Below are positions 896 to 18,678 of a stretch of 64,000 nt of DNA, piece by piece. Under the pieces are notes generated by a model. That model searched no databases, had not been told where the DNA came from, and was given only the letters and a program-made list of their open reading frames with translations. The position numbers were made by a program, and so were the translations under genes. The DNA comes from a bacterium. Lineage in GTDB: Bacteria > UBP6 > UBA1177 > G963667425. Location of the stretch: NCBI GenBank assembly GCA_963667425.1, contig OY763407.1, positions 2,201,464 to 2,265,463 on the forward strand. Direction: 5' to 3'. Within the stretch, counting starts at the first letter, position 1. Every line of letters starts with the position of its first letter.

Positions 896-1954
896 TTGAA
901 AAGACAAAAATCTTTTAAAATAATTGAAAAAATATTACTTATCATAATTCCTTTGATCTTTTTTCTTTTTACATATGAAAAACCTCAGAAGGAAGAAGAA
1001 AAACCTGAAAATCACACAGAAACCGTACAACAGGAAAATCCACCTGAAAAAAAACCTTCAATTTCCGAAAATCAAAATAATTATGGAACGCTTTTTAATG
1101 AAGAAATAACAGATTTCATAATTAATGAAATTAACAACGCACAATCAGAAATAAAAGGCGTAACTTATACTTTTTCAAACAAAAAAATAGCTGCAGCTCT
1201 TAAAGAAGCAACAGAAAGAGGCGTCAACGTTTCTATTTTTTATGGAAAAGGAAGTAACATTCAACATATGGACGGCGTTTATTTAAGAACAATGGACAGA
1301 GGAATTCTTCATGAGAAATTCCTGATAATTGATGACATCATACTTATTTCATCATCAAACTTATCCTCCGACAAAAGTTCAAACAGCGCCATATGGTTTA
1401 AAAATGCACCAAACCTCAAAACGATTCTGGAAAAGGAAATCTCCGATCTGTTTGCTCCTGTATATAACAAAAAATGTGAAAAAGGGTGCAGTTTCGAATA
1501 TGGCAAGATTTATTTTTCACCAGGGAAAAACTGCACAGAAATCAAAAAAGAGATAACAACAGGGCAAAAAGAAACTTTTCTTGCACTCTACACAGCTACA
1601 TTAAAAAATCCGATGATGAGCGGAATCAAACAGCAGCTTACGAAAAAAGTTAAAGTTTCATCAATAATGGATAACTGGAATGTTGAAGAGGAAATGCCTG
1701 TAAATAAAAAAGCATGCAGCTACATAAAAAATCGTGGAGGCAAATGCGAAATGTGGGATGAAAAAGAACAGGGGAAAAAATTCCACCATAAATTTGCACT
1801 TATAGACAATAAAAAGCTTATCTTCGGATCCATGAACTGGACATCTTCCGGCTGTTATAAAAACAGAGAAATAACTATTGTCACTGAAAATGAAGAAATA
1901 GTCTCTGGTTTTGTAAAATACAAGGATGAACTCAAATCATCTTTTGGATTATAA
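896..1954 (+). CDS. Phospholipase D family protein (two HKD motifs), N-terminally anchored
   Basis: HEKFLIID and HHKFALID...GSMN motifs; N-terminal hydrophobic segment; TTG start after GGAGG. Confidence 0.85.
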   Translation: MKRQKSFKIIEKILLIIIPLIFFLFTYEKPQKEEEKPENHTETVQQENPPEKKPSISENQNNYGTLFNEEITDFIINEINNAQSEIKGVTYTFSNKKIAAALKEATERGVNVSIFYGKGSNIQHMDGVYLRTMDRGILHEKFLIIDDIILISSSNLSSDKSSNSAIWFKNAPNLKTILEKEISDLFAPVYNKKCEKGCSFEYGKIYFSPGKNCTEIKKEITTGQKETFLALYTATLKNPMMSGIKQQLTKKVKVSSIMDNWNVEEEMPVNKKACSYIKNRGGKCEMWDEKEQGKKFHHKFALIDNKKLIFGSMNWTSSGCYKNREITIVTENEEIVSGFVKYKDELKSSFGL

Positions 1955-5150: not shown

Positions 5151-6863
5151 TTATTCACCACCAATAAGAAGAAGTGAAAGTTTTTGAGCACCTATAACCT
5201 GCTCCCCGCTTTTAAAAGTAATCAAAAAATTTAATTTATGAGCTCCCCCACCAAAGAAAGGAAATTTAAACGTCATTTCATAATTCAATTCTGTTTCTGG
5301 TTTTGCACCGTAAAATGTTTTGCCTTCTATCTTTTCAACATTTTCTGCTGGTTCAGCAGAAAGGGCTGCTATTTCATAACCATCATATTTTAAAGTTTTT
5401 TCTGAAAACTCATATGGATCCTTATCCATTATCTGTTCTACTGATATAGTTATATTTTTCTTAATATTGTTATCTGTAACAAAAGCGGCTATAGCACTTT
5501 TTAATTTTTCCTTTATTCCATTTCCAAACTCATCATCTGTATGAAAATTATAGTTTTTTAAATCCTGGTTTGTTGTCCCTGTTTCCAGAGCAAACCTTGC
5601 AAGTGACTCATCTGCAGTATCTTTTGTCTGACAATTTTCTCCATTATCATCACATTTAAACTCAGAATTTATACCTATGAATTTTGCGCCGAGACTGTTC
5701 ATCGCAGACAAGGTTTCTTTTATTGTATGTCCTGGGCTTTCATCATCAAGCCAGATAGTTGCAAACTCTTCTGAAGATTCTACATCTTTTGCAAGCTTAA
5801 CCTCCTCGATAACTTCATCCGTAATTACCAGAAACATTGGCACCGCCTCTTTTCTTAAACAAGCGCCCCCTATGTTTCCGAGTTTATTAACACAATTCTT
5901 TGCTGGAAAAGCTACGTCTTCTATACTCTCCGGCAAGACCTCCCCTCCAAAAAGACCGGAAGCAACAGCAACCCGATTAACAAGACCTTTTCCTGTTACA
6001 ACTTGATACATTGTTTCAGCTGTAAGTTCAAAATTGTCTCCTCTATTTTTTACATCTGATATTTTCTGATTAAAAAGTTCCACATCAGAAGTTACCGGAA
6101 GAACAACATTGTATGGTATTTCGACTATTCCAAAACTGTTATTTGAATTATTTGTAATCTCCGCAAAATCTTCATTTATAAAACTCTTTATCTCTTCCCG
6201 AACTTTTGGAAGAGTCTTTTCTGTTGATGCAGTAACATCAATTAAAACAACAACATCCATTGGTAAAACTTTAAATGAAAAAGAGATTTTTTCTGTTTGC
6301 GTTTCTTTACATAAATAAACATATTTAGCATCATCATAAAAACTGCTGCTATCCAATGGATCTGTACGCATAAAAAGTTCTTCGGCGTCATTCATACCAT
6401 CACCATCAGAGTCTGGGTCATATGGATTTAATCCATTTTCTTCTTCATAGCTGTCAGTATAACAATCGCCATCGCTATCTCTATCAAGATAATCTGGAGC
6501 ACCATCATTGTCAGTGTCTTTACAAGGAAGAGATGGGCACTCCTCTCTATCAGAAATTCCATCTCCATCCGAATCATCATCCATACAGTCAGGAAGATTA
6601 TCCCAATCTGTATTATCACATCCTTCAATACTGTTTGGAATACCATCACCATCTTCATCCCCTTCAACATCATCACAGGGACAAACAACTATATCTTCCT
6701 CAGGCTCATCATCAGTATCCAAATCACTATCCTGATTTAAATCTTCATCATTTTGCTCTATAATGAAATCATTATCATTAAGTTTGTTGTTAGTTGTATC
6801 ATCTAATGAGCAGCTCAATAAAAACACAAAAACCAATATAAATACTGTCTTTTGATAATTCAT
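5151..6863 (-). CDS. Lipoprotein with thrombospondin type-3 (Ca-binding) repeats and a VWA-like domain, CglD-like adhesin
   Basis: LLSC lipobox, acidic linker, repeated DxDxDG motifs (DSDGDGISD, DTDNDGAPDYLD), DVVVLIDVTAS MIDAS-like motif, LVITDE. Confidence 0.75.
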   Translation of the reverse strand: MNYQKTVFILVFVFLLSCSLDDTTNNKLNDNDFIIEQNDEDLNQDSDLDTDDEPEEDIVVCPCDDVEGDEDGDGIPNSIEGCDNTDWDNLPDCMDDDSDGDGISDREECPSLPCKDTDNDGAPDYLDRDSDGDCYTDSYEEENGLNPYDPDSDGDGMNDAEELFMRTDPLDSSSFYDDAKYVYLCKETQTEKISFSFKVLPMDVVVLIDVTASTEKTLPKVREEIKSFINEDFAEITNNSNNSFGIVEIPYNVVLPVTSDVELFNQKISDVKNRGDNFELTAETMYQVVTGKGLVNRVAVASGLFGGEVLPESIEDVAFPAKNCVNKLGNIGGACLRKEAVPMFLVITDEVIEEVKLAKDVESSEEFATIWLDDESPGHTIKETLSAMNSLGAKFIGINSEFKCDDNGENCQTKDTADESLARFALETGTTNQDLKNYNFHTDDEFGNGIKEKLKSAIAAFVTDNNIKKNITISVEQIMDKDPYEFSEKTLKYDGYEIAALSAEPAENVEKIEGKTFYGAKPETELNYEMTFKFPFFGGGAHKLNFLITFKSGEQVIGAQKLSLLLIGGE

Positions 6864-8451: not shown

Positions 8452-8512
8452 GCTGTACATTTAAAGCCAAATAAATTTAATAAAAAAGTTAAAAGTGACT
8501 TCCCCTACCCTT
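8452..8512. repeat. Direct repeat, copy 2 (61-bp core), abutting the receptor stop codon
   Basis: 58/61 identical to 6954-7014. Confidence 0.93.
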
Positions 8513-10727
8513 ACAATCCTTTTCTTATGAATTCTTCAACGTGGAATGTTAATGAAAATCCGATGTAAAATGGTTCTCCGGCTACAAAGTGTTTTTCTGG
8601 TATTTTTGATGCAATTGTTTCGGGTCCTTCAAAGTTGCTTGCATAGTTGTATTCCATTGCATGGTATTTCTGGTTTAGAAGGTTTCTCATTTCTGTTCCG
8701 AGTGTGAAATACCATAATCTTATGCTGCCTCCGCAGTTTAAAAGGTAATATGGGGTTCCTGTTTCTTTGTATTTTAATGGCATTCCCGGCATGTATGTGA
8801 AGCCGAGTCCGAATTTTCCGGTTACTGGAACGGTTTTTATTGCGAGATTTCCAAGTTTTCCTTTTAGAACTATGTCTTCTCTAAAGATGAATTTTGGTAC
8901 ATTTTCTATAAGATCACCTTTTTCATGTTCGTCTGTTATTGTTGTGTCCCATGTTCCGTATGTGTAGCCTGCGTTTGTAAGGAATGTAAGAAATTTTCCA
9001 AGTGATGTTTCGTTGTTAAAGAGTATTGCATGTCTTGTTGATGGTCCTACGACTACTGTTCTGCCTGAATCTGCACTGAATGTTATGTCTTTGTCTATGT
9101 TTGCAAAAAGGTACGAGAATTGTGTTTTTGATGATATAAAGCTCTTTTTTTCTTTGTAGTTGTAAAGTAATCCTGTTTCAAACTGATGCGATCTTGAAAA
9201 TGGTGCTGCTTCGTTGTCTGATAGAGACATTGCATCAACAGATCTGGTTGCATGTCCATAACTTGCGGTGAGTGTTAATCCTTTTACGATGTTTATTCCA
9301 GCACGTACTCTCGGATTTAACGTATATCCGTATGCTTTTACTGTCTGATCAGGTTCTGATGATGTGGTGTTGAGCAAATCTTCTGATTCACTTTTTTTGG
9401 TTACGTTAAAGCTGAAACTGTCTATTCTTAATCCACCTTCTAATTTGAATCTTTTTAAGAAGTTTACTTCACTTCCTGCCCAGCCTGAGATGTTTATGAC
9501 TGTGAATGTGTCATCAAATACTTCTGCATAGGGATTTCCAAGTGTTGCTGTAAGCTTGTACTGTGAGGTTTCACCGTGATCTAATCTTACATTGTAGCCT
9601 GTTTTTAACTTTATTTTATCTTCAGCTATTTGTGCGTATGTGTATTCGCCTTTTAATCCGCCTGTGAAGACTGTGTAGCGCATTTCTGTATCATCGCCTC
9701 GCTGATAGTCTCTGTAAACTCCATATTCGTCTACATCATTTTTGTAGCCTGTAAAGTTGGCTCTTAGATTCATTGTGCGGAAGCCTAAATAGACATTCTG
9801 GTCAAAGTATGCTCTGTCGCTTCCTGAAAGTGAGCTGAAGCTTAACAATATTCTGCTGCTTTCTCCTCCCTGATTTGAATCGTATGTGTCATAAAAACCT
9901 ATTTTTTCATATTTGTAGTCGTCTTCTCTTATAACTCCTGCCTGATCGTATCTTGAGGTGTATCCATAGGCGGAAAGTTTCCACGTGAAACCATCTTCTT
10001 TTATTCCTCCTGAATATCTGGCGTTTCCTGATGCTTTTATTGAGGCTCTGTTTTCGCCGAACCCGTCACTTTTATTAAATTCAAAGCCGGCAAAGGTATC
10101 GCTGTCCTGATTTTCAGGAGCAATTACGAGCAAAGCTCTTTCTGTGTTCCAGAGTCCTCTGCCGTATGTAACTGTTGTTCCTCGTTCTTTAACTCCAAGC
10201 TGATAATCTGCTGAACCTGCGAACCCGAAATCTCCTTGAGAAAGATCAAAAGGTCCTTCTTTTACATCTATTTTATTAACCAGTTCCGGTATTATGAAAT
10301 GAAGATCAGTATATCCGTGTCCATGTGGATTGCTTATTTCATTTAATGGAACGCCATCAATACTAAATGCTATATCCTGCCCTTCTTTTGCTGCAAAGCC
10401 TCTCATATATGTTGATGTTGCGTGTCCTGAACCGCCATGATTAACAACAAGAATTCCTGGTGCGAGCATTAACTGTTCGGCTGCGTTTTTTCTTGGAATT
10501 ATATGAAAATTATCCATATTAAGTTTGTAAGTTGATGCTGTTTCAGGCTTTTTTTCACGCACAGTTTCAACTACGGTTCCTTCCAGTTGATAGGTTTTTG
10601 TGTTTTCCTCTTTTTTTTCTTCTTTTTTCTTCATATAAAGATTCAGAGGATTTTCTTTTTTTTCTTCTCCATAAAGTGAAAAGAAAAAAATCAGTGATAT
10701 TAGGAATATAACTATTTTCAATTGCAT
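8511..10727 (-). CDS. TonB-dependent outer membrane receptor with His-rich plug
   Basis: Signal peptide MQLKIVIFL, plug motifs (PGILV, MRGF, IDGVPLN, NPHGHGYTDLHF, IDVKEGP), beta-barrel-like strands, NLLNQKY; last gene of the TonB operon. Confidence 0.9.
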   Translation of the reverse strand: MQLKIVIFLISLIFFFSLYGEEKKENPLNLYMKKKEEKKEENTKTYQLEGTVVETVREKKPETASTYKLNMDNFHIIPRKNAAEQLMLAPGILVVNHGGSGHATSTYMRGFAAKEGQDIAFSIDGVPLNEISNPHGHGYTDLHFIIPELVNKIDVKEGPFDLSQGDFGFAGSADYQLGVKERGTTVTYGRGLWNTERALLVIAPENQDSDTFAGFEFNKSDGFGENRASIKASGNARYSGGIKEDGFTWKLSAYGYTSRYDQAGVIREDDYKYEKIGFYDTYDSNQGGESSRILLSFSSLSGSDRAYFDQNVYLGFRTMNLRANFTGYKNDVDEYGVYRDYQRGDDTEMRYTVFTGGLKGEYTYAQIAEDKIKLKTGYNVRLDHGETSQYKLTATLGNPYAEVFDDTFTVINISGWAGSEVNFLKRFKLEGGLRIDSFSFNVTKKSESEDLLNTTSSEPDQTVKAYGYTLNPRVRAGINIVKGLTLTASYGHATRSVDAMSLSDNEAAPFSRSHQFETGLLYNYKEKKSFISSKTQFSYLFANIDKDITFSADSGRTVVVGPSTRHAILFNNETSLGKFLTFLTNAGYTYGTWDTTITDEHEKGDLIENVPKFIFREDIVLKGKLGNLAIKTVPVTGKFGLGFTYMPGMPLKYKETGTPYYLLNCGGSIRLWYFTLGTEMRNLLNQKYHAMEYNYASNFEGPETIASKIPEKHFVAGEPFYIGFSLTFHVEEFIRKGL

Positions 10728-11896
10728 TTCATCAACTCCGTTCTGCATTTTAGGGCAAGCTCTTTAAGCTTTTTTCCTTTTTCAATATAAAATGGTGTGG
10801 CAAACTTTGAAATTATGTTTTCCATTTCATTATAATTTTCTGTTTTAAAAGCTGAATAGGCTAGTTTATAAAATATGTTTTCATTTTTTATATTTTCTTT
10901 TTCAGCTGTTTTCAGAAGCAGGAATGCTCTTATATAAGATTTTTCAGCAATGTAGATAACAAGTTTCTGACTTAACTTTTTTTCAGGGTTGGTAATAAAC
11001 TTGTTAAGCCTCATTGCTTCATAGTTTTCACCTGCGGCTCTAAATGCTTCAGCTGCCTGACAGTAATATTTGTTATCTTTAAGTGCTATTTTTTTAAACA
11101 GGTTTCCTGCGACCGTGTAATTTTCTTCATTTATGTATGTATATGAAAGTCTTTCCACTATTTCTGCATTTAGCGGAAAAATAATATTTGCTTCTTCTAA
11201 AATGTTCTGAGAATCTTTTATAAATCCTTTTTCTCTAATTTTATCTGACATATATAGATATAAAAAAGGGTCGCTTTTTTCTATTTTGTTGTATTTAACT
11301 GCAAAATAGCGGGCAGCTTTATAAAATCCTTCATCTGTGTAAAGAATAGATATTTCCTTTAAAAGGGTAGGGGAAGATGGGAAAAAATTCAGCCCATTTA
11401 TTAGTGTTTTAAGAGATTTTGATATGTCAGTATTTTTTTTATAGGCTTTAGACAACAGAAGAAAGTAGAGCTCTTCTTTTTTGCCTGATTCATAACCTTG
11501 CTCCAAGGCTTTTATGCTTTTATCAAATTCATTGTTGAAATAGTATGCTTCGCCGATGTAGAGATTTAAAAAATTCCTATCCGGATATTTCTGAAGAACT
11601 TTTGTGAGCATTTCTGCGGCTTTGTCATAATATTTACGGTTAAGATAGATAACTGCAACAAGCTGAAGGTAATCTTCATAAACAAATCCGCATCCATTTT
11701 CACTTGTTTCATAACATTTTTTAGCTTCGGCAAGTATTGATTCAGCTTTTTCATAGTTGCCATTATTTACTGCATCTGATGCCACTTCAAGATATGGAAT
11801 GAAATTTGTCTCTTCCTTTTTTTTGTTTTCTCTTAAAACTCTTGCATTTAAAGCTGTTTCTATTATGAGAAAAATTATAAAAATTAGCTTTTTCAT
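10718..11896 (-). CDS. Exported tetratricopeptide-repeat protein (TtpD-like position)
   Basis: Signal peptide; TPR-like repeats (YDKAAEMLTKVLQKYP, IGEAYY); follows tonB. Confidence 0.8.
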   Translation of the reverse strand: MKKLIFIIFLIIETALNARVLRENKKKEETNFIPYLEVASDAVNNGNYEKAESILAEAKKCYETSENGCGFVYEDYLQLVAVIYLNRKYYDKAAEMLTKVLQKYPDRNFLNLYIGEAYYFNNEFDKSIKALEQGYESGKKEELYFLLLSKAYKKNTDISKSLKTLINGLNFFPSSPTLLKEISILYTDEGFYKAARYFAVKYNKIEKSDPFLYLYMSDKIREKGFIKDSQNILEEANIIFPLNAEIVERLSYTYINEENYTVAGNLFKKIALKDNKYYCQAAEAFRAAGENYEAMRLNKFITNPEKKLSQKLVIYIAEKSYIRAFLLLKTAEKENIKNENIFYKLAYSAFKTENYNEMENIISKFATPFYIEKGKKLKELALKCRTELMKCN

Positions 11897-12543
11897 TCTT
11901 TTATCCTGAAATCTATCTTTTCTTTAAGCCATATTTTAACGTTTGACTTTTTGTATTCAGCGGGTTTGAATTTCCATTTTAAAACGCCTTCTGTAACACT
12001 TTTATCAAAAATTCCCTGCGGGTCAGCACTTACAATGACAACTTTTAAAACCTTTCCTTTCTCATTTATCAGTATTTTTATATTTACACTTCCTTCAATT
12101 TCTCTTTCTTCTGCAAACTCTGGATATTCTATTGCTCCTTTGGAAACTATTTCAGGCATTTTATCAACCATTTCTTCGGTATATATAAGATTTTTATTGC
12201 TTATATGTTTCTGTTTCAGCCCTGATCGACCTATTTTTAAGCCTCCTAATGCAAAGTTATCAAGATTTAAGGAAAGTTCAGGGGGATTAAATTGTGTTTC
12301 CGAAACTGGCATGACTTCGCTTTCTTCCATTTGCGAAATTTCTTTTACAGGTTCTTCTTTTTCTATTTTTTCCTTTATTTCTTTCTTTTCAGGTTCTTTA
12401 AAAACTATTTCGCTTTTTTCTTTATCTTTTCTTATTATTTTTTCAGTTTTTCCATTAAGATTTGCTATAAATGCAATTATAAAGATGTTCACTATTATTG
12501 AAGATAGTGCTATTAAAGCTTTTTTAATTACTTTATTAATCAT
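11893..12543 (-). CDS. tonB: Energy transducer TonB
   Basis: N-terminal TM, E/K/P linker, YPEFAEEREIEGSV...INEKGKV...FD...KWKFKPA; ATG at 12543 overlaps the end of exbD. Confidence 0.9.
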   Translation of the reverse strand: MINKVIKKALIALSSIIVNIFIIAFIANLNGKTEKIIRKDKEKSEIVFKEPEKKEIKEKIEKEEPVKEISQMEESEVMPVSETQFNPPELSLNLDNFALGGLKIGRSGLKQKHISNKNLIYTEEMVDKMPEIVSKGAIEYPEFAEEREIEGSVNIKILINEKGKVLKVVIVSADPQGIFDKSVTEGVLKWKFKPAEYKKSNVKIWLKEKIDFRIKE

Positions 12544-12952
12544 TTTTCTTCTCAACGTCCACAGCAATGTTTTTGCCGCCACCAAGCCTGCATGAATCTG
12601 CAACTTCAACAAGAAAACCTGTTTCAACATATTTATCTGCAATCAGTAAAATTGCTCTTTCTCTATTTTTTGCAAGCAGATTTTGAACATAAGACTGTAC
12701 CATCCAGCTGTTTACTGGTTTGCCATCAATGGTTATATCTCTATTTTTTTCAATCGTTATTCTTATGCTTTTTGAATCGGTCATTTCTCCTGATGAAGCT
12801 CCCGGACGTTCGATGTCAAGTTTCATCTCTTTTACAAAGGTTGTTGTCACTATAAAAAAGATTAGGAGAATAAAAATAATATCTATCAGAGGTGTTATGT
12901 TTAATTCATCATTTTGCTGACGTTTGTTTCTTATGTTTCCTAAATCGCTCAT
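12536..12952 (-). CDS. exbD: Biopolymer transporter ExbD
   Basis: LNITPLIDIIFILLIFFIVTTTF and IADK motifs. Confidence 0.93.
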   Translation of the reverse strand: MSDLGNIRNKRQQNDELNITPLIDIIFILLIFFIVTTTFVKEMKLDIERPGASSGEMTDSKSIRITIEKNRDITIDGKPVNSWMVQSYVQNLLAKNRERAILLIADKYVETGFLVEVADSCRLGGGKNIAVDVEKKND

Positions 12953-13326
12953 TTTTCACCTCTTTTAGAGTTTCTTTTATAAACGATAAAGCGACTTACA
13001 ATAAATGCAGGAACTGCCTGAGCCAAACCAAACTGCGTTGTTATGAGAGCTTTTGAGATTCCGGCAGAGATAAGATCCGGTTTTGAACTTAAATCTGAGT
13101 AGGTTATGACCTGAAAGGTTTCTATCATTCCGCTTACTGTTCCTAAAAGTCCCAAAAGTGTTGAGGAAGCAATAAAAACATTTATTATTCTGCGATTTTC
13201 AGGTTTTTCATCAAAAACATCGGAGATTATAAGAAACCAGATTATAAGTCCGTTTAAAATGAGCGGATAGATAACTATGCCGCCATGATTTATTAAAGAA
13301 AGAATGCTTAAAACTATTTCTCTCAT
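12949..13326 (-). CDS. exbB: MotA/TolQ/ExbB family protein (short)
   Basis: LLGLLGTVSGMIETF and GISKALITTQFGL motifs. Confidence 0.88.
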   Translation of the reverse strand: MREIVLSILSLINHGGIVIYPLILNGLIIWFLIISDVFDEKPENRRIINVFIASSTLLGLLGTVSGMIETFQVITYSDLSSKPDLISAGISKALITTQFGLAQAVPAFIVSRFIVYKRNSKRGEK

Positions 13327-14604
13327 CTACTCTCCTTTAATAATGTTTATGAGAGAAAGTGCGTGTTGTTCCATGTCATCAGAAATTTTATCTGACCATC
13401 TTGAAAGCAATGCATGAACAATAAGAACAGGAATTGCTACTGCAAGCCCGAATTCGGTTGTTATGAGCGCTTCGGAAATTCCGAAAGAGACAATTTTAGG
13501 ATCACCTGAACCATAAGCAGTAATGGCATTAAATGTTGAAATTATTCCTGTAACTGTTCCAAGAAGTCCCATAAGAGGTGAAACTGCTGCAATTATGCTC
13601 ATAACTGGAAGAAAACGCTGAAGAGGCGAAAGCTCTTTTAAGATTGCTTCTTTTGCTTTTTCTTCAATAGTTTCCCGCTTGTAGGTTTTATTACTTAAAA
13701 TAACTTCAGCAACATTTTCAAAAGGTGTTTTTCCTTTAATTTCAAACTTTTCACCTTTTTTTAACTTTTCCATTATGCTGGTAAATATTTTTGCTGATTT
13801 TTTATCTGCTTTTGAAAGAGTAAAAATTCTTTCAAGAACAATAAGAAATGCAAAAAAAGCAAGTACCAGTATTAAAAGAGCTATAATTCCACCTTTTTTA
13901 ACTGTCTCGGTAAAGCTTTCATTGGTTTTTATCTCTTTATATCTTGCATTTTCATTCCAGAAAAATAGTGGCTGCAAAGTTAAACTGCTTTTACTTTCAT
14001 TTTTACTCTTTTTCTCTGTAAGATAAGTAAAAAGTGAGCCTGATTCGCTGTTTAAAACATTAAAATCATCTCCAGAGAGGCTGTATGCAGCAAGATTTCC
14101 TATAAAAGTTATTTCGTTTTCTTCTTTTTTTCCTTCTTTGGTGAAAAAGGAACCTTTTTCTTTTCTTATGTGGTCATTTAAAGCGACGCTTTCAAACTTT
14201 TTATTAAAGGAATCAATAAATATCTCTGAAAAATTCTCTTTTTTGCCGCTCTTTTTTATTTTATCTGCAAAAAGGAGCTTTATTGTCTCTGAAAGCATCT
14301 CTTTTTCTGATTTTGATGATGAAATTGCGTTTTTAAGAAGTTTTTTTCTTTTTTCAAGCGTTGAGTTTTCCTTTTTAATTCCAGCAACTTCTTTTTTTAA
14401 CTTTTCAAGCTCATTTTGCAGCTCTTTACTGTGATGGTTATGTTCTTCCATATTTTTTAATTTATACTCTGAAAGCATCTTTATTTCAGATTCCAGCTCA
14501 CTTTTTTCAGCTTCATAGGCTTCCTTAAATGTAGAGTAGGGAAGCTCTTCGGCATTAAGAATAATGGAAAATAAAATGAAAATTATAAATAAAAATTTAT
14601 TCAT
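13327..14604 (-). CDS. Long MotA/TolQ/ExbB family protein with N-terminal coiled coil (TtpC-like)
   Basis: Signal peptide MNKFLFII, coiled coil, PLMGLLGTVTGII, GDPK..SFGISEALITTEFGL. Confidence 0.88.
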   Translation of the reverse strand: MNKFLFIIFILFSIILNAEELPYSTFKEAYEAEKSELESEIKMLSEYKLKNMEEHNHHSKELQNELEKLKKEVAGIKKENSTLEKRKKLLKNAISSSKSEKEMLSETIKLLFADKIKKSGKKENFSEIFIDSFNKKFESVALNDHIRKEKGSFFTKEGKKEENEITFIGNLAAYSLSGDDFNVLNSESGSLFTYLTEKKSKNESKSSLTLQPLFFWNENARYKEIKTNESFTETVKKGGIIALLILVLAFFAFLIVLERIFTLSKADKKSAKIFTSIMEKLKKGEKFEIKGKTPFENVAEVILSNKTYKRETIEEKAKEAILKELSPLQRFLPVMSIIAAVSPLMGLLGTVTGIISTFNAITAYGSGDPKIVSFGISEALITTEFGLAVAIPVLIVHALLSRWSDKISDDMEQHALSLINIIKGE

Positions 14605-15361
14605 TTTCGCCTCTCGGATTCTGCGGAAGAGGAAGGTATAAAAGACCTCCTTCAACGCCTCTTTTTAAGGAAGCAAACAGATTTGAAATTTTTTCTTTTT
14701 CTTTTTTTCCAGTTACCCTGAATTTTTTAGTTTTATCTCCACTATTCAGATAAAGATCATAATTCCGACCATTTTGAGCATACATCAAAACCATTCCAAA
14801 TCTTATAGTATCAGCATAAATTGAGTTTCCATTATCTTCTTCAATTACTGTTTTTGAAAAAGCTATTTCGTCTGCAAGTTTTGTCTCATCCTGCATAAAA
14901 CGCCAAAGCTCTGTTGCTGCTTCATAAAAGGTTATTTCAGATAGCTCTATTTTCTTTTTAAGTTTATTAAGTTTGCCCATTCTTTCAGATTTTTTAAATG
15001 GAATTCCCTTTTGAACATTTTTTATTAGAGAATCTATTTTTTCATTTAAAAAAGGATAAAGAGAAACATCTTTTTCCTCTATTTTTAACTGTTCCTGCTT
15101 AAGCTCTTTTATCTCCTGTTTAAGCTCTTTGTTTTCCTCTTTTACTTTATCTTTCTCAGATTTAAGAGAAAATTTCTCTTTTAGAAATTCATCTTCCTCT
15201 TTTTCAGATATTTTACTATCCTGCTCAATCTGACTGTTTAAAAGTTTTATCTTTCCTCTTAGCTGGGATAACTCTTCTGCCCATTCTGAAACAGTATCTT
15301 TTGCGTTAAGTGTAAATAAAAAGATACTTATATAAAGTAAAATGGTGGTTTTTCTCCCCAT
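14597..15361 (-). CDS. DUF3450-like periplasmic coiled-coil protein (TtpB-like)
   Basis: Signal peptide, coiled coil, GIPFKKSER, IRFGMVLMYAQ, C-terminal LYLP; lies directly upstream of the long ExbB. Confidence 0.78.
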   Translation of the reverse strand: MGRKTTILLYISIFLFTLNAKDTVSEWAEELSQLRGKIKLLNSQIEQDSKISEKEEDEFLKEKFSLKSEKDKVKEENKELKQEIKELKQEQLKIEEKDVSLYPFLNEKIDSLIKNVQKGIPFKKSERMGKLNKLKKKIELSEITFYEAATELWRFMQDETKLADEIAFSKTVIEEDNGNSIYADTIRFGMVLMYAQNGRNYDLYLNSGDKTKKFRVTGKKEKEKISNLFASLKRGVEGGLLYLPLPQNPRGENE

Positions 15362-16267
15362 TTAATTCTCCAATACTTCAAATTCACATAAACCGACTCC
15401 ATTAAAATGAACTCCTGCTCTTGCTGCATAATTTACAAAGGCTTCAAGAGTCAGGTCATCATAAGGTAAAATTCCATTATCATTGTATGTGACTTTTGAA
15501 CCGTCTTTATTTCTTAACGTATCCCCATTTTCATCTTTTAAATCAGTAAGATCCTGCTCATAAAGCTCTTTTTCTGTTACTGTGTCATCATCTCCTGCTA
15601 CTGCTGCAAAAGCATCAAAACGTAAGTCTTCATCACCAGATGCTAGTGTATCCCAGAAAAGATGAAGCGCATGTGCATAAATATATGCCGAAACGCTTTT
15701 ATTTCTTTCTATAACTATTCCTTTTGTCTTATCTACACCGTTTATGCAGTTAAAATATCTACTTGCCACATTAAGACCAAATCTGAAATTAACTTCCTTG
15801 TCATCTTTTGTAGCAACGCCTTCTATAAGATAAGAGAGAGAATTTTCTTTCATATATTCAAAATCATCCTCATCTACATTTATGTTTTCAGTCTTGTCAC
15901 TAACTTGTCTAAATGTAAATTCTATATTTAATCTTTTTGCAGGAAGATCGTTAAGAGTTGTGATAATGTTCTGCTGATCGCTTCCTTTTTTAAGATCTAT
16001 TGCCATCACTTTGTCAAGAGAGCCTTCAACATCATTATTATCCTGATTTGTCAGTTTTATATTTCCAATGGTTACTATATATTTTGTAAAAGAGAGGCTC
16101 CATCCATCAACAAAAGTGTATTCTGTTCCGTTTTCTGTATATGGAAATCCTTCCTGAAGTGCTTTTCCTCCACTTGCTGATAAAATCAGTGCTCCTGTTC
16201 CTGCATCATCTTCTGTTGTGCAGCCAAAAAAGGCTGCTGTTAATATAATTATAAGCAGATATTTCAT
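15362..16267 (-). CDS. Lipoprotein associated with the TonB receptor operon
   Basis: MKYLLIIILTAAFFGC lipobox; GGAG upstream; HALHLFWD and HFNGVGLC motifs. Confidence 0.8.
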   Translation of the reverse strand: MKYLLIIILTAAFFGCTTEDDAGTGALILSASGGKALQEGFPYTENGTEYTFVDGWSLSFTKYIVTIGNIKLTNQDNNDVEGSLDKVMAIDLKKGSDQQNIITTLNDLPAKRLNIEFTFRQVSDKTENINVDEDDFEYMKENSLSYLIEGVATKDDKEVNFRFGLNVASRYFNCINGVDKTKGIVIERNKSVSAYIYAHALHLFWDTLASGDEDLRFDAFAAVAGDDDTVTEKELYEQDLTDLKDENGDTLRNKDGSKVTYNDNGILPYDDLTLEAFVNYAARAGVHFNGVGLCEFEVLEN

Positions 16268-16268
16268 T

Positions 16269-17036
16269 TTAATTTCTCCATTTGACGTTATATGAGGTAT
16301 AGGTTTTAACTCCTGTAAGAAAAGCTGTATAAGCCTGCGAATCTTCATTGTGTGAAAATATGAAAACGCCATCACTTTCTTCTGTAAGTGAATCAAAATC
16401 AACGTTTATAAACCAGTTTTCAACTAGAACTTCCAGTATCAAGCTTCCTGACCTATCTTTTGAAAGCTCTATATCAGAATCTGGTGAAATATTTTGAATA
16501 GTTCTCATTGTACCTTCATCAGGAATTGTAATATCAACTATAAAATCTTTTTCTGTTTCTCCTTTAACGGCTTTTCCTTCTACATAAATTGAATTGCCAT
16601 TGAGATTCTTAAAACTTTCGCTGTCTGACCCCAAAGAAAGCGAAGAATCTTTTGGTGGATAGAGATACATTTCTGCTCTTCTGCATGTTCCTGCTTCACC
16701 TTCTGTTTTACCTGTTCGAGTTATATTTTCATCTAAAAGATTTACAACATACTGGCTTGTAACTTCTCCTAAAATTATTCCTTTATCAGCCTGAGCCTCT
16801 GCAGGACATTTGCTTATTGATGGTGCTTTACTGTAAAAATAAACCGGTCCTACTGCCATATATGCTTTTGTTAAAGAAATTTTCCAGTCTTTACCATTTT
16901 CAAAATTTTCAGTTGTTCCTGAACTGAAAACGCCTGCTATTCCTGTATCATAAGATATCTTTTCTCCTGATGTTTCACTGCCGCAGCTTATTAAAAAAAG
17001 AAGAAAGATAAAAGATAGGCATATTCTTTTTAACAT
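16269..17036 (-). CDS. Lipoprotein associated with the TonB receptor operon
   Basis: MLKRICLSFIFLLFLISC lipobox; GGAGG upstream. Confidence 0.8.
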   Translation of the reverse strand: MLKRICLSFIFLLFLISCGSETSGEKISYDTGIAGVFSSGTTENFENGKDWKISLTKAYMAVGPVYFYSKAPSISKCPAEAQADKGIILGEVTSQYVVNLLDENITRTGKTEGEAGTCRRAEMYLYPPKDSSLSLGSDSESFKNLNGNSIYVEGKAVKGETEKDFIVDITIPDEGTMRTIQNISPDSDIELSKDRSGSLILEVLVENWFINVDFDSLTEESDGVFIFSHNEDSQAYTAFLTGVKTYTSYNVKWRN

Positions 17037-17049
17037 TTTTTCCTCCATA

Positions 17050-17094: not shown

Positions 17095-18072
17095 TTATTC
17101 AGCTTCTTTATATTTAATTATAAGAGAAACTGTTGTCGCTTCTTCTAAAGCTTTAAATTTTATTATTGCAGGTTTTGGACTATCTGATGTCACATCATCA
17201 TAAGTTGTTGTTACATGCCAATGTTCAACTAGTGTATCAGGACATTTGCCATTTGCTGTTCCACCTGAAATTAGTAGTTCATTTTCATTCATATCTAAAA
17301 CTTTATCCAGTATCTCTGCTTTATTTAAGAAAATGACATAAGCTCCACCTTCATCTGCTGTGTGTCTTACTGGAAAATGCACATATCCTTCACTGTTTGC
17401 GCTAAGCGTTACTGTTACAGGGATATCTGTTTCAACATGAACATCTTTAAAATCAGCAAAAGATGTTACTGCTGTAACTTCTTCAGGGGTATTTTCGGTA
17501 AACTGATTACATGCAAGCTGAGGAAAAGCTATTTCTTCAATACAATTTTTAGAATTATCAGGATCTACAACATATCCTTCATCACAGTGACATTCATTAT
17601 CATGAAGATGACCGTGACCTCCACATTCATCTTCAGCAACAGCTTCACAATGAGCCTTTGCATCCTCTTCATGACAGGCTTTTGATGTTCCGCATGATTC
17701 TATAGATTTATGCCCGTCAATACAGTTGTAAGCTATGTTTTTTTCACTATCACAACTAAATTCACCTTCTGAGCAGCTTGCAGTTTCATCAACGCAAACA
17801 GCTTCGCCTTCTGCTGTTTCAACACATTTATAGCCTTTACTTTCACAGTCATCACTCCAATGAAAGTGAGGATCCATTCCTTCAACAATGTGGCAGTACT
17901 CTATCTTATTTTCCGTGCATCTTTCCCAGCCATTAGTTTCTGCGCTGCATTCCCATGAACTTATCACATCAGAATCATTAATATCTTTGTCATTACTATC
18001 ATTTGAAGAGCTATCGTCACAACCTGTTATCAGTATAAAAATTACGAGAACAGAAAACAGTATTTTTTTCAT
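17095..18072 (-). CDS. Cys/His-rich acidic lipoprotein, putative metal binding
   Basis: ITGC lipobox; many Cys; DPHFHW, CHEE..AHC, CGGHGHLHDNECHC and EHWH motifs. Confidence 0.82.
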   Translation of the reverse strand: MKKILFSVLVIFILITGCDDSSSNDSNDKDINDSDVISSWECSAETNGWERCTENKIEYCHIVEGMDPHFHWSDDCESKGYKCVETAEGEAVCVDETASCSEGEFSCDSEKNIAYNCIDGHKSIESCGTSKACHEEDAKAHCEAVAEDECGGHGHLHDNECHCDEGYVVDPDNSKNCIEEIAFPQLACNQFTENTPEEVTAVTSFADFKDVHVETDIPVTVTLSANSEGYVHFPVRHTADEGGAYVIFLNKAEILDKVLDMNENELLISGGTANGKCPDTLVEHWHVTTTYDDVTSDSPKPAIIKFKALEEATTVSLIIKYKEAE

Positions 18073-18120
18073 AAAAATCTCCATAACAAATGTTTAAAAT
18101 CAAAAAATGTAAGTTAATAA

Positions 18121-18516
18121 TTACAGATTAAACGGAGGAGAATTTTTGGGTGCAAAGAAAAGCACCTCTTTTATGATGTTTCTGTCTTTTAATAAAAAGG
18201 ATAAATACTTTAATAGAAAAATATGAAATAAAATTATTAAAACAGCTGTAAAAAGAGTTTTCTGGTGTGTAAGAAAATATATGACCGAACATTCATTATC
18301 TTCATGTTCGTGACAATTTTCCGATGAAATGGCGACACTGTTTTCCGTATCATAATTTATTAGATTTTCATATAACTCTTTATGAAAATGTTCAAATTTA
18401 TTTTCAAGAGGATTCCAGCGGTGAGGAATAACTGTAAAGTGGTATGAAAAGACAAAAATATTGGAAAATAGAAGGGCTATTAAAAAGTAAGAAATCTTTT
18501 TAGAAAAAGGTCTCAT
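18121..18516 (-). CDS. His-rich leader protein ending APKNSPP (DUF2946/CutF/CruR-like architecture)
   Basis: N-terminal hydrophobic segment, HFTVIPH, EHFH, CHEHEDNEC, Pro-Pro motif just before the stop; first gene of the TonB operon. Confidence 0.72.
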   Translation of the reverse strand: MRPFSKKISYFLIALLFSNIFVFSYHFTVIPHRWNPLENKFEHFHKELYENLINYDTENSVAISSENCHEHEDNECSVIYFLTHQKTLFTAVLIILFHIFLLKYLSFLLKDRNIIKEVLFFAPKNSPPFNL

Positions 18517-18678
18517 TTTCTCTTTCCAAATTGGGAAACATAATAAAATTTAAAGAAAACAACCTTATAAAAAGGTTTTTTCATTAAATGTCACTTAATT
18601 AATATAGAAATATTGATTAAAATTGCAATTATTTATCTCATAAGTAAAATCTATGTGCTATTTTTTGAGGAGGTTTTT

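Follow-up and report, generated by a model that had tools for sequence, protein, structure and literature searches.

A conserved APKxSPP leader family and a candidate metal-sensing arrest peptide at the head of a TonB operon

SecM, ApdA and ApdP are arrest peptides of the RAPP/RAGP type, and export of their N-terminal part is thought to pull on the nascent chain and relieve the arrest. All the metal-sensing leader peptides that have been characterised in the literature we searched, namely CruR and CutF, respond to copper, and bacterial zinc uptake is treated there as a matter of transcriptional control by Zur. According to the main text of the CruR paper, in which the arrest motif of SecM is given as RAGP, CruR of Bordetella pertussis (Bp2923) is a protein of 145 residues with a CXXC motif at residues 90-93 and an RAPP motif at residues 139-142; copper relieves the arrest and Rho then terminates, a five-residue change in spacing impairs copper control, and the signal peptide is dispensable for its action (PMC9426467). 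In CutF of Rhodobacter capsulatus, copper instead lengthens the arrest while the protein is exported by the Sec pathway, and the stem-loop that covers the downstream ribosome-binding site (RBS) melts (Ozturk et al.). The main text of a survey of CutF-like proteins sorts 5,334 proteins into 29 clusters, whose ligands are Cys, His or a mixture of the two, and proposes that His-only clusters beside HupE/UreJ are Ni/Co sensors (10.1101/2022.11.11.516240). Here we describe a leader open reading frame (ORF) in contig OY763407.1 of a bacterial genome (GCA_963667425.1), within a stretch of 64,000 nucleotides that was analysed as a whole and is called the window below. To judge from its sequence, this ORF probably encodes a cis-acting regulator of the CruR/CutF kind that couples extracytoplasmic metal to the TonB-dependent uptake operon downstream of it.

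The N-terminus of the leader protein, MRPFSKKISYFLIALLFSNIFVFSY, is basic (MRPFSKK) and then hydrophobic, and the C-terminal end is FFAPKNSPPFNL, followed by the stop codon. An original prediction, made from the letters of the window, had pointed to this ORF, to its motif and to a pairing with the next gene, and all of its coordinates proved correct when read from the sequence. The export-like N-terminus, the His/Cys clusters (HFTVIPH, EHFH and CHEHEDNEC) and the C-terminal ending that it described all lie within 18121-18516 on the minus strand, and Pfam matches bear out its description of the leader as the first ORF of a TonB operon, because the leader heads a string of lipoprotein, DUF3450, ExbB, ExbD, TonB and receptor genes. 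In the leader protein, C68 and C76 form a Cx7C pair, and there is no CxxC. Neither Pfam nor NCBIfam contains a family that matches the leader ORF.

How does this leader compare with the described systems? Like CruR, it is small and apparently exported, comes first in an operon for metal uptake in which a TonB-dependent transporter is also encoded, keeps a Cys ligand conserved, and carries PP three residues before the stop codon; the distance from C90 to P142 in CruR is 52 residues (PMC9426467, main text), the same as from C76 to P128 here. It differs from CruR in having APKxSPP in place of RAPP, that is, Lys for Arg and one extra residue before the small residue and PP; in having one invariant Cys and conserved His residues in place of CxxC; in its intergenic region of 48 nucleotides, compared with 162 nucleotides in the main text of the CruR paper, and its low-GC (guanine plus cytosine) host; and in a gene context that suggests zinc rather than copper. 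Its short intergenic region, with possible masking of the RBS as in cutF-cutO, recalls CutF, whereas CutF itself carries CxxxC and PPP, stalls with copper present and regulates an oxidase that serves detoxification. Because the operon here is one for uptake, the CruR polarity would be expected, in which arrest without metal keeps the operon on and metal relieves the arrest. The four features by which the main text of the CutF-like survey filters its candidates are all found in the leader: a length of 131 residues, PP at 127-128, a hydrophobic N-terminus and a gap of 48 nucleotides (10.1101/2022.11.11.516240). With SecM, ApdA and ApdP, the leader shares a C-terminal arrest motif that ends in Pro and a basic residue a few positions upstream, but those peptides monitor the secretion machinery and not metal, and their motif differs.

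The word-indexed protein search returned the leader itself and one relative at 59% identity and nothing else, so that wider searches, of whole genomes and with profiles run exhaustively, were required. A search of 41 related genomes in all six frames (E<=1e-3) found full-length relatives in seven other genomes and a second copy in the genome of the window itself (G000:C1:1333785-1334174; L009:7771-8178, minus strand), which has 36% identity to the leader and ends in YFAPKNSPPFSFHYGF. A profile (A2) built from 15 relatives was then run against 1.84 billion cluster representatives and matched 390 proteins at E<=1e-3, 27 of them at E<=1e-10; among the best 150 of the 390, almost all are 117-162 residues long and matched end to end. 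Where the sources give these proteins a name, it is "hypothetical protein". The clusters of the ESM Atlas are likewise all "hypothetical", one of them carrying DUF2946 on 11% of its members, which we treat as a lead only.

Our alignment contains 147 of 151 proteins, the fragments or fusions P0025, P0026, P0027 and P0059 having been left out. Although the relatives are only 14-56% identical to the window protein and mean column identity is 13%, a few columns are invariant or nearly so: H32, C76, P123 and P127 are present in all 147 relatives, P128 in 146, S126 in 143, H26 in 135, A122 in 133 and K124 in 132. Apart from H26, H32, C76 and A122-P123-K124-x-S126-P127-P128 there are no such columns; H43 follows with 120 of 147. 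The family consensus ends in a hydrophobic residue, [AS]-P-K-x-S-P-P and then 1-14 further residues, most often three and never none (146 relatives), and a single relative, P0015, has SPT in place of SPP. The PKxSPP stretch thus stands out in this alignment as the most conserved part of the family, in keeping with the conservation among homologues that was proposed as a check on the prediction. The proposed His ligands fared less evenly. H32, H26 and H43 are conserved, but the ligands are not His only, since C76 is invariant, and CHEHEDNEC and EHFH are mostly unconserved. By a hydropathy criterion (19-residue Kyte-Doolittle mean >1.6), an N-terminal hydrophobic segment is present in 128 of the 147 relatives.

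The distance between the invariant Cys and the motif is fixed as well. From this Cys to the last Pro there are 49-57 residues, and 51-54 in 128 of 146 relatives (52 in 43 of them and 53 in 44), even though the sequence of the linker is unconserved; from H32 to the last Pro, by contrast, the distance varies from 85 to 118 residues. A ruler of this kind is typical of nascent-chain sensors. For comparison we assembled 22 true DUF2946 ORFs from betaproteobacterial genomes, all of which exceed the Pfam cut-off and carry HCPxC and [PS]R[AG]PP. In these, R[AG]PP ends in a Pro that lies 49-53 residues (52 in 13 of the 22 ORFs) beyond the first Cys of CxxC, and the tail is again most often three residues, so that the Cys-to-PP spacing is the same in DUF2946 and in the leader family. 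An hhalign comparison of our family alignment (A3) with the DUF2946 alignment brought C76 into register with the first Cys of CxxC, and APKxSPP with PRAPP, with a score of 26.0 (12.9 for the reversed control and 12.0 for the best of 20 column-shuffled controls) and E=3.2e-4. Matches to the DUF2946 model PF11162, which has a gathering score of 23.7 bits, are scarce: weak collinear ones occur in 3 of 150 representatives, one of them above the cut-off at 24.1 bits, sub-threshold ones in 6 of 40 leaders from named genomes, and none at E<=1 in the whole genome of the window. Among the marks of DUF2946 the leader shows an N-terminal export signal (by hydropathy), the Cys-to-Pro spacing and the position as first gene of a metal-homeostasis operon, but neither the model score nor CxxC nor RAPP, its motif being APKNSPP followed by three residues, with R-A changed to K-x-S. 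We therefore read the leader family as a sister or convergent family to DUF2946 that keeps the same measure, and not as a member of PF11162 as this is defined.

In which genomic surroundings is the family found? Among 39 genomes of the phylum of the window, 12 carry it, and wherever same-strand downstream ORFs were found the leader is the first in its gene string. Eight of the 11 phylum loci other than the window have the leader followed by an unnamed protein of 367-447 residues, a ZnuA-family binding protein (PF01297), an ATP-binding cassette (ABC) ATPase and an ABC-3 permease; in two, an M23 peptidase comes next. Thirty nucleotides downstream of the second copy in the genome of the window begin genes for an ABC ATPase, for a permease of the FtsX type that has a long stretch rich in His and Glu, and for a 255-residue protein that matches no family. 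Across 10 of the 12 phylum loci, the gap between the leader and the next gene is 30-50 nucleotides.

Loci in named genomes, one genome per species, were located with the degenerate DNA pattern L-x-[LF]-A-P-K-[NKQH]-S(TCN)-P-P, which gave 119 stretches; the loci counts rest on 80 of these 119, and because the pattern fixes the motif, the counts of taxa and contexts describe a biased sample. A family ORF was found at 48 of the 80 loci and none at 32, and 46 of the ORFs end in the motif. These leaders belong mostly to Myxococcota (Polyangia) and Planctomycetota, with a few in Gemmatimonadota, Alphaproteobacteria, a Candidatus Eisenbacteria genome and four Vibrio species. We recorded the first four same-strand ORFs downstream of each, with start and gene calls that are crude in high-GC contigs. 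ZnuA and/or ABC-3 follow 14 of the 46 leaders, a TonB-dependent receptor or ExbB follows four, RND efflux genes follow two, MbnP/MbnH/PCuAC follow four (all in the Vibrio branch) and an ABC ATPase alone follows two, while 20 have no recognisable metal gene, or no ORF, downstream. ZnuA-type ABC importers are the commonest named context of the family. The predicted position upstream of TonB operons holds for the window and for the four leaders with a TonB-dependent receptor or ExbB. We also considered that the leader might be an anti-sigma factor and rejected this, as a sigma-70 gene lies downstream of just one of the 46 leaders (L072). On one Polyangia contig (L054), two leader genes lie 3.5 kb apart, at 1219-1701(-) and 5213-5614(-), each heading its own gene string.

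The Vibrio members (L049:4210-4665(-), L060:6076-6540(-), L074:3242-3697(+) and L058:4219-4674(-)) end in LAPK[QH]SPP and lack the HF..H motif. They have Cys pairs and a hydrophobic segment ahead of the motif, match the profile in hmmsearch at E values from 4e-4 to 9e-6, and stand upstream of genes for MbnP, MbnH (a di-haem peroxidase) and PCuAC. By sequence and neighbourhood, they look like a copper branch of the same motif family. The main text of the CruR paper lists TonB-dependent transporters, PCuAC, MbnPH and AhpC as neighbours of DUF2946 and never mentions zinc (PMC9426467). The contexts of DUF2946 and of the leader family therefore overlap, and the link to ZnuA appears to be particular to the latter.

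An unnamed family of proteins of about 370-520 residues is encoded between leader and ZnuA (L016:2224-3327(-), L018:1785-2891(+), L050:3125-4381(-), L098:871-2178(+) and 19 others). One BLASTP cluster takes 23 of the 27 first-downstream proteins tested, and these match no Pfam or NCBIfam family except for one weak hint of the LbtU siderophore porin. In both members whose ends were read intact the C-terminal residue is aromatic, a possible sign that a barrel of the outer membrane accompanies ZnuABC.

In the window, the operon runs from the leader through three lipoprotein genes to genes for DUF3450, a long MotA/ExbB, a short ExbB, ExbD, TonB, a TPR protein and a TonB-dependent receptor (Table 1). 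From DUF3450 to the receptor region (8511-15361, minus strand), the gene order is what we take to be that of the Vibrio TonB2 cluster (TtpB-TtpC-ExbB2-ExbD2-TonB2-TtpD). The first lipoprotein gene begins at the ATG at 18072, and its product has the N-terminus MKKILFSVLVIFILITGC. A BLASTP relative of the third lipoprotein directly follows a family leader on a Myxococcaceae contig (L093:1-1203(-)), and this lipoprotein family may be a recurrent partner of the leader.

Table 1. Positions in the window of the leader ORF, its sequence elements and the genes downstream of it
Feature	Position	Strand	Remarks
Sigma-70-like promoter match (TTGCAA, 16 nucleotides, TATATT)	18601..18628	-	Upstream of leader ORF; consensus scan alone
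Leader ORF	18121..18516	-	131 residues; member of unnamed APKxSPP family
N-terminal hydrophobic helix, residues 4-29	18430..18507	-	Read as export signal or signal anchor
Codons H26 (18439-18441), H32 (18421-18423), H43 (18388-18390)	18388..18441	-	Conserved His directly past anchor
Codon C76, invariant Cys	18289..18291	-	52 residues ahead of P128
Codons A122-P123-K124-N125-S126-P127-P128	18133..18153	-	Candidate arrest motif APKxSPP
Three-residue tail FNL and stop codon TAA	18121..18132	-	After PP
5' arm of proposed pairing, AAAAAUUCUCC	18137..18147	-	In minimum free energy fold; not above chance
3' arm: Shine-Dalgarno GGAG (18079-18082) and spacer before ATG 18072	18073..18082	-	Sequence
Intergenic region, leader to first lipoprotein gene	18073..18120	-	48 nucleotides
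Cys/His-rich lipoprotein gene, first regulated gene (putative)	17095..18072	-	Weak EGF-like matches alone; lipobox ITGC
Second lipoprotein gene	16269..17048	-	No family
Third lipoprotein gene	15362..16402	-	Weak MbnP likeness, PF20243 E=0.01, under cut-off
DUF3450, MotA/ExbB (442 residues), ExbB, ExbD and TonB genes	11893..15361	-	Pfam
TPR protein gene and TonB-dependent receptor gene (Plug domain)	8511..11896	-	Directly past tonB, same strand; Pfam

What might such a leader do? The motif, the ligand residues, the spacing between them and the operon position are conserved across the family; that the ribosome stalls, which metal is sensed, which way the response goes and how the RNA takes part are what we infer, and the order of events and the geometry that we propose lean on the published behaviour of CruR and CutF. 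The N-terminal hydrophobic segment would bring the nascent chain to the translocon. The ribosome would then slow or arrest once S126-P127 occupied the P site and P128 the A site, with A-P-K in the exit tunnel contributing. At that point C76 would lie about 52 residues from the peptidyl-transferase centre, roughly the length of tunnel plus translocon, and would be emerging beside H26, H32 and H43. If metal, most likely Zn(II), were to close this His/Cys site, the chain might be pulled or might fold, the arrest would be relieved, termination would follow four codons on, and the downstream genes would be translated or transcribed less. Without metal, the arrest would persist and the message would stay open for initiation at the lipoprotein gene 48 nucleotides downstream, either because the K-N-S-P codons are kept off GGAG or because Rho is blocked. 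The genome codes for both Rho and EF-P. Zinc is a guess as to the sensed metal, which we favour on three grounds: importers of the ZnuA type, M23 peptidases as neighbours, and ligands that are His and Cys. The Ni/Co of the original prediction found no support, the context being one of zinc-type (ZnuA) importers, with copper genes in the Vibrio branch. The CruR/CutF logic that it had proposed agrees with the architecture, spacing and operon position that we found by sequence comparison, but its replacement of CxxC by His ligands alone does not hold, since the ligands include the invariant C76.

A broader reading, which we put forward tentatively and judge somewhat short of probable, is that the APKxSPP leaders are undescribed, widespread zinc-responsive arrest peptides, which would shut down TonB systems and importers of the ZnuABC type when a His3-Cys zinc site closes in the nascent chain, some 52 residues away from the peptidyl-transferase centre. 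Their spread would take in Myxococcota, Planctomycetota, Gemmatimonadota, some Pseudomonadota and the small phylum of the window itself, they would provide post-transcriptional control by zinc beside or instead of Zur, and their motif would be distinct from RAPP, RAGP and PPP.

Several observations weigh against the proposal of a metal-sensing arrest leader, and some of them against zinc in particular. First, PF01297 proteins can carry Mn or Fe besides Zn, no long His-rich loop was seen in the 18 PF01297 proteins examined, and the Vibrio branch adjoins copper genes. Second, by the crude gene calls available, the first four downstream ORFs of 20 of the 46 named-genome leaders include no recognisable metal gene, and in two contexts the downstream genes code for efflux, for which the response would have to be reversed. 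Third, the hhalign probability is 39%, at which common descent with DUF2946 is unproven and the likeness could be convergent; PF11162 does not match the window protein at E<=10, and the window protein has no CxxC.

The remaining points on this side concern the RNA, where we considered a more specific form of the arrest model. In it, the K-N-S-P codons act as an anti-RBS by base-pairing with GGAG ahead of the lipoprotein gene, and a ribosome arrested on S-P-P covers these codons and frees the RBS. The sequence AAAAATTCTCC at 18147-18137, which comprises codons K124-N125-S126 and the first two bases of P127, is complementary with one bulged T to GGAGATTTTT at 18082-18073, directly 5' of the lipoprotein ATG. 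The pairing occurs in the minimum free energy fold, whose frequency in the ensemble is 0.0044, and a ribosome arrested with P127 in the P site would cover 18137-18147, judging by the size of its footprint. CutF uses such a stem-loop, and the short, rather constant gap at most phylum loci suits a translational mechanism of the CutF type. The complementarity that had been predicted, single bulge included, is therefore real, but in the window it does not exceed chance: the fold has z = -0.91, 28 of 200 shuffles folding at least as well, and the duplex energy is -9.3 kcal/mol against -7.5 +/- 1.7 in synonymous recodings drawn with the locus's own codon usage (p=0.22). Ser-Pro-Pro codons (UCN CCN CCN) are pyrimidine-rich and by nature complementary to GGAG, so that some pairing would be expected anyway. 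At the 12 phylum loci, leader and RBS pair slightly better when both come from one locus than when they are mismatched (-9.62 vs -8.56 kcal/mol; permutation p=0.031), and the combined synonymous test gives p=0.057 with all 12 loci and p=0.029 with the 10 left once the near-duplicates L017 and L022 are dropped, p-values that overstate the case because the loci are kin; in three of the 12, the real sequence pairs worse than the null mean. As to the covariation that had been suggested as a check, RNAalifold predicted 0 pairs for 10 leader-to-RBS stretches with a poor intergenic alignment, and neither arm is changed in related strains, which leaves no covariation to read. Borderline across the relatives and within chance in the window, the anti-RBS is rather doubtful when judged by itself. 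A small hairpin (GGUGC, an 8-nucleotide loop, GCACC) is formed in the same fold at 18148-18170 (-), just upstream of the motif codons, and was also flagged by a terminator scan on the opposite strand.

A different kind of explanation is that the ORF encodes a small metal-binding protein that is stable in the membrane or periplasm. It would form a helical hairpin, bind metal at a His/Cys site and act, for example, as a chaperone, a sensor or an accessory subunit of a transporter, and APKxSPP would serve its structure or its interactions. The AlphaFold2 model, computed from the alignment of 147 rows, has a mean pLDDT (predicted local distance difference test) of 83.6. It consists of a helix (4-29), a beta hairpin (32-35/40-43) that holds H32 and H43, a short helix, a low-confidence loop and, in the C-terminal half, C76, helices at 77-83 and 86-119 and coil over the motif. 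From their positions at helix ends, H26, H32, H43 and C76 would cluster in space, and conserved His and Cys would suit a metal site in a folded protein. That the fold is fairly confident fits such a protein, with a function of its own, and is a further point against an arrest peptide. In the window protein, the second helix is also hydrophobic enough for a membrane span (Kyte-Doolittle 2.38), but this holds for just 11 of the 147 relatives. Nor would a stable protein lead one to expect a sequence that is free to vary outside a few residues, or a motif that is fixed relative to the Cys and not to the C-terminus, the tail ranging from 1 to 14 residues. Moreover, the gene heads unrelated machines (ABC importers, TonB systems, RND pumps, MbnPH and an M23 peptidase), which suits a regulator better than a subunit, and the nearest proteins that have been characterised work in cis and are broken down quickly, according to the main text of the CutF-like survey (10.1101/2022.11.11.516240). 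We therefore consider a stable protein unlikely. No solved structural relative was detected by sequence search or by Foldseek at E<=0.001.

That the ORF is the precursor of a ribosomally made metal-binding peptide, or a chance ORF, is very improbable: MbnP/MbnH genes do follow the Vibrio members and the protein is small and bears Cys and His, but it has 131 residues with an N-terminal membrane anchor, its conserved part is a Pro-rich tail and not a core peptide, the downstream ORFs scanned include no recognisable gene for peptide modification, and a chance ORF is ruled out by the 390 relatives and by third-position bias. This bias comes from related strains, where 13 of the 21 differences listed in the leader ORF fall on third codon positions by manual count and none falls in the K-N-S-P-P codons (21 further differences exist), a pattern which indicates that the ORF is under coding selection in these strains.

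If the arrest-leader proposal is correct, what would be new? That leaders of the CutF kind may sense other metals through His ligands has already been published, in the main text of the survey (10.1101/2022.11.11.516240). The main texts of the CruR paper (PMC9426467) and of the survey hold no occurrence of "zinc" or "ZnuA", and absent from both are the APKxSPP motif, the link to ZnuA importers and TonB2-like operons, and the spread through Myxococcota and Planctomycetota. It is by its main text alone that APKxSPP is set apart from the survey's 29 clusters, and overlap with a listed cluster is possible. No paper joining arrest peptides or stalling with zinc or znuA was found in open-access text. 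The proposal would extend nascent-chain metal sensing to zinc-type importers and TonB2-like systems, in phyla unstudied for such regulation, and would offer a new natural arrest motif, A-P-K-x-S-P-P, for ribosome studies. The 52-residue ruler from Cys to PP, common to two families with different ligands and motifs, makes a testable quantitative prediction of the position of the sensing residue at the stall. At least 390 clusters of "hypothetical proteins" would gain a purpose and a name, and attention is drawn to the unnamed family of proteins that accompanies ZnuA and probably resides in the outer membrane.

Upstream of the leader, the consensus scan found 23 promoter-like matches in the region against a shuffle mean of 28.2, and hence not above shuffles, and k-mer and palindrome comparison of the upstream regions of the two leader copies in this genome found no common Zur-box-like operator. 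A near-palindrome, TTTCCCAATTTGGAAA, which is absent from the promoter region of the second copy, lies in the window at 18523-18538, 7-22 nucleotides 5' of the leader ATG, and overlaps the likely RBS of the leader, GGAAAGAG.

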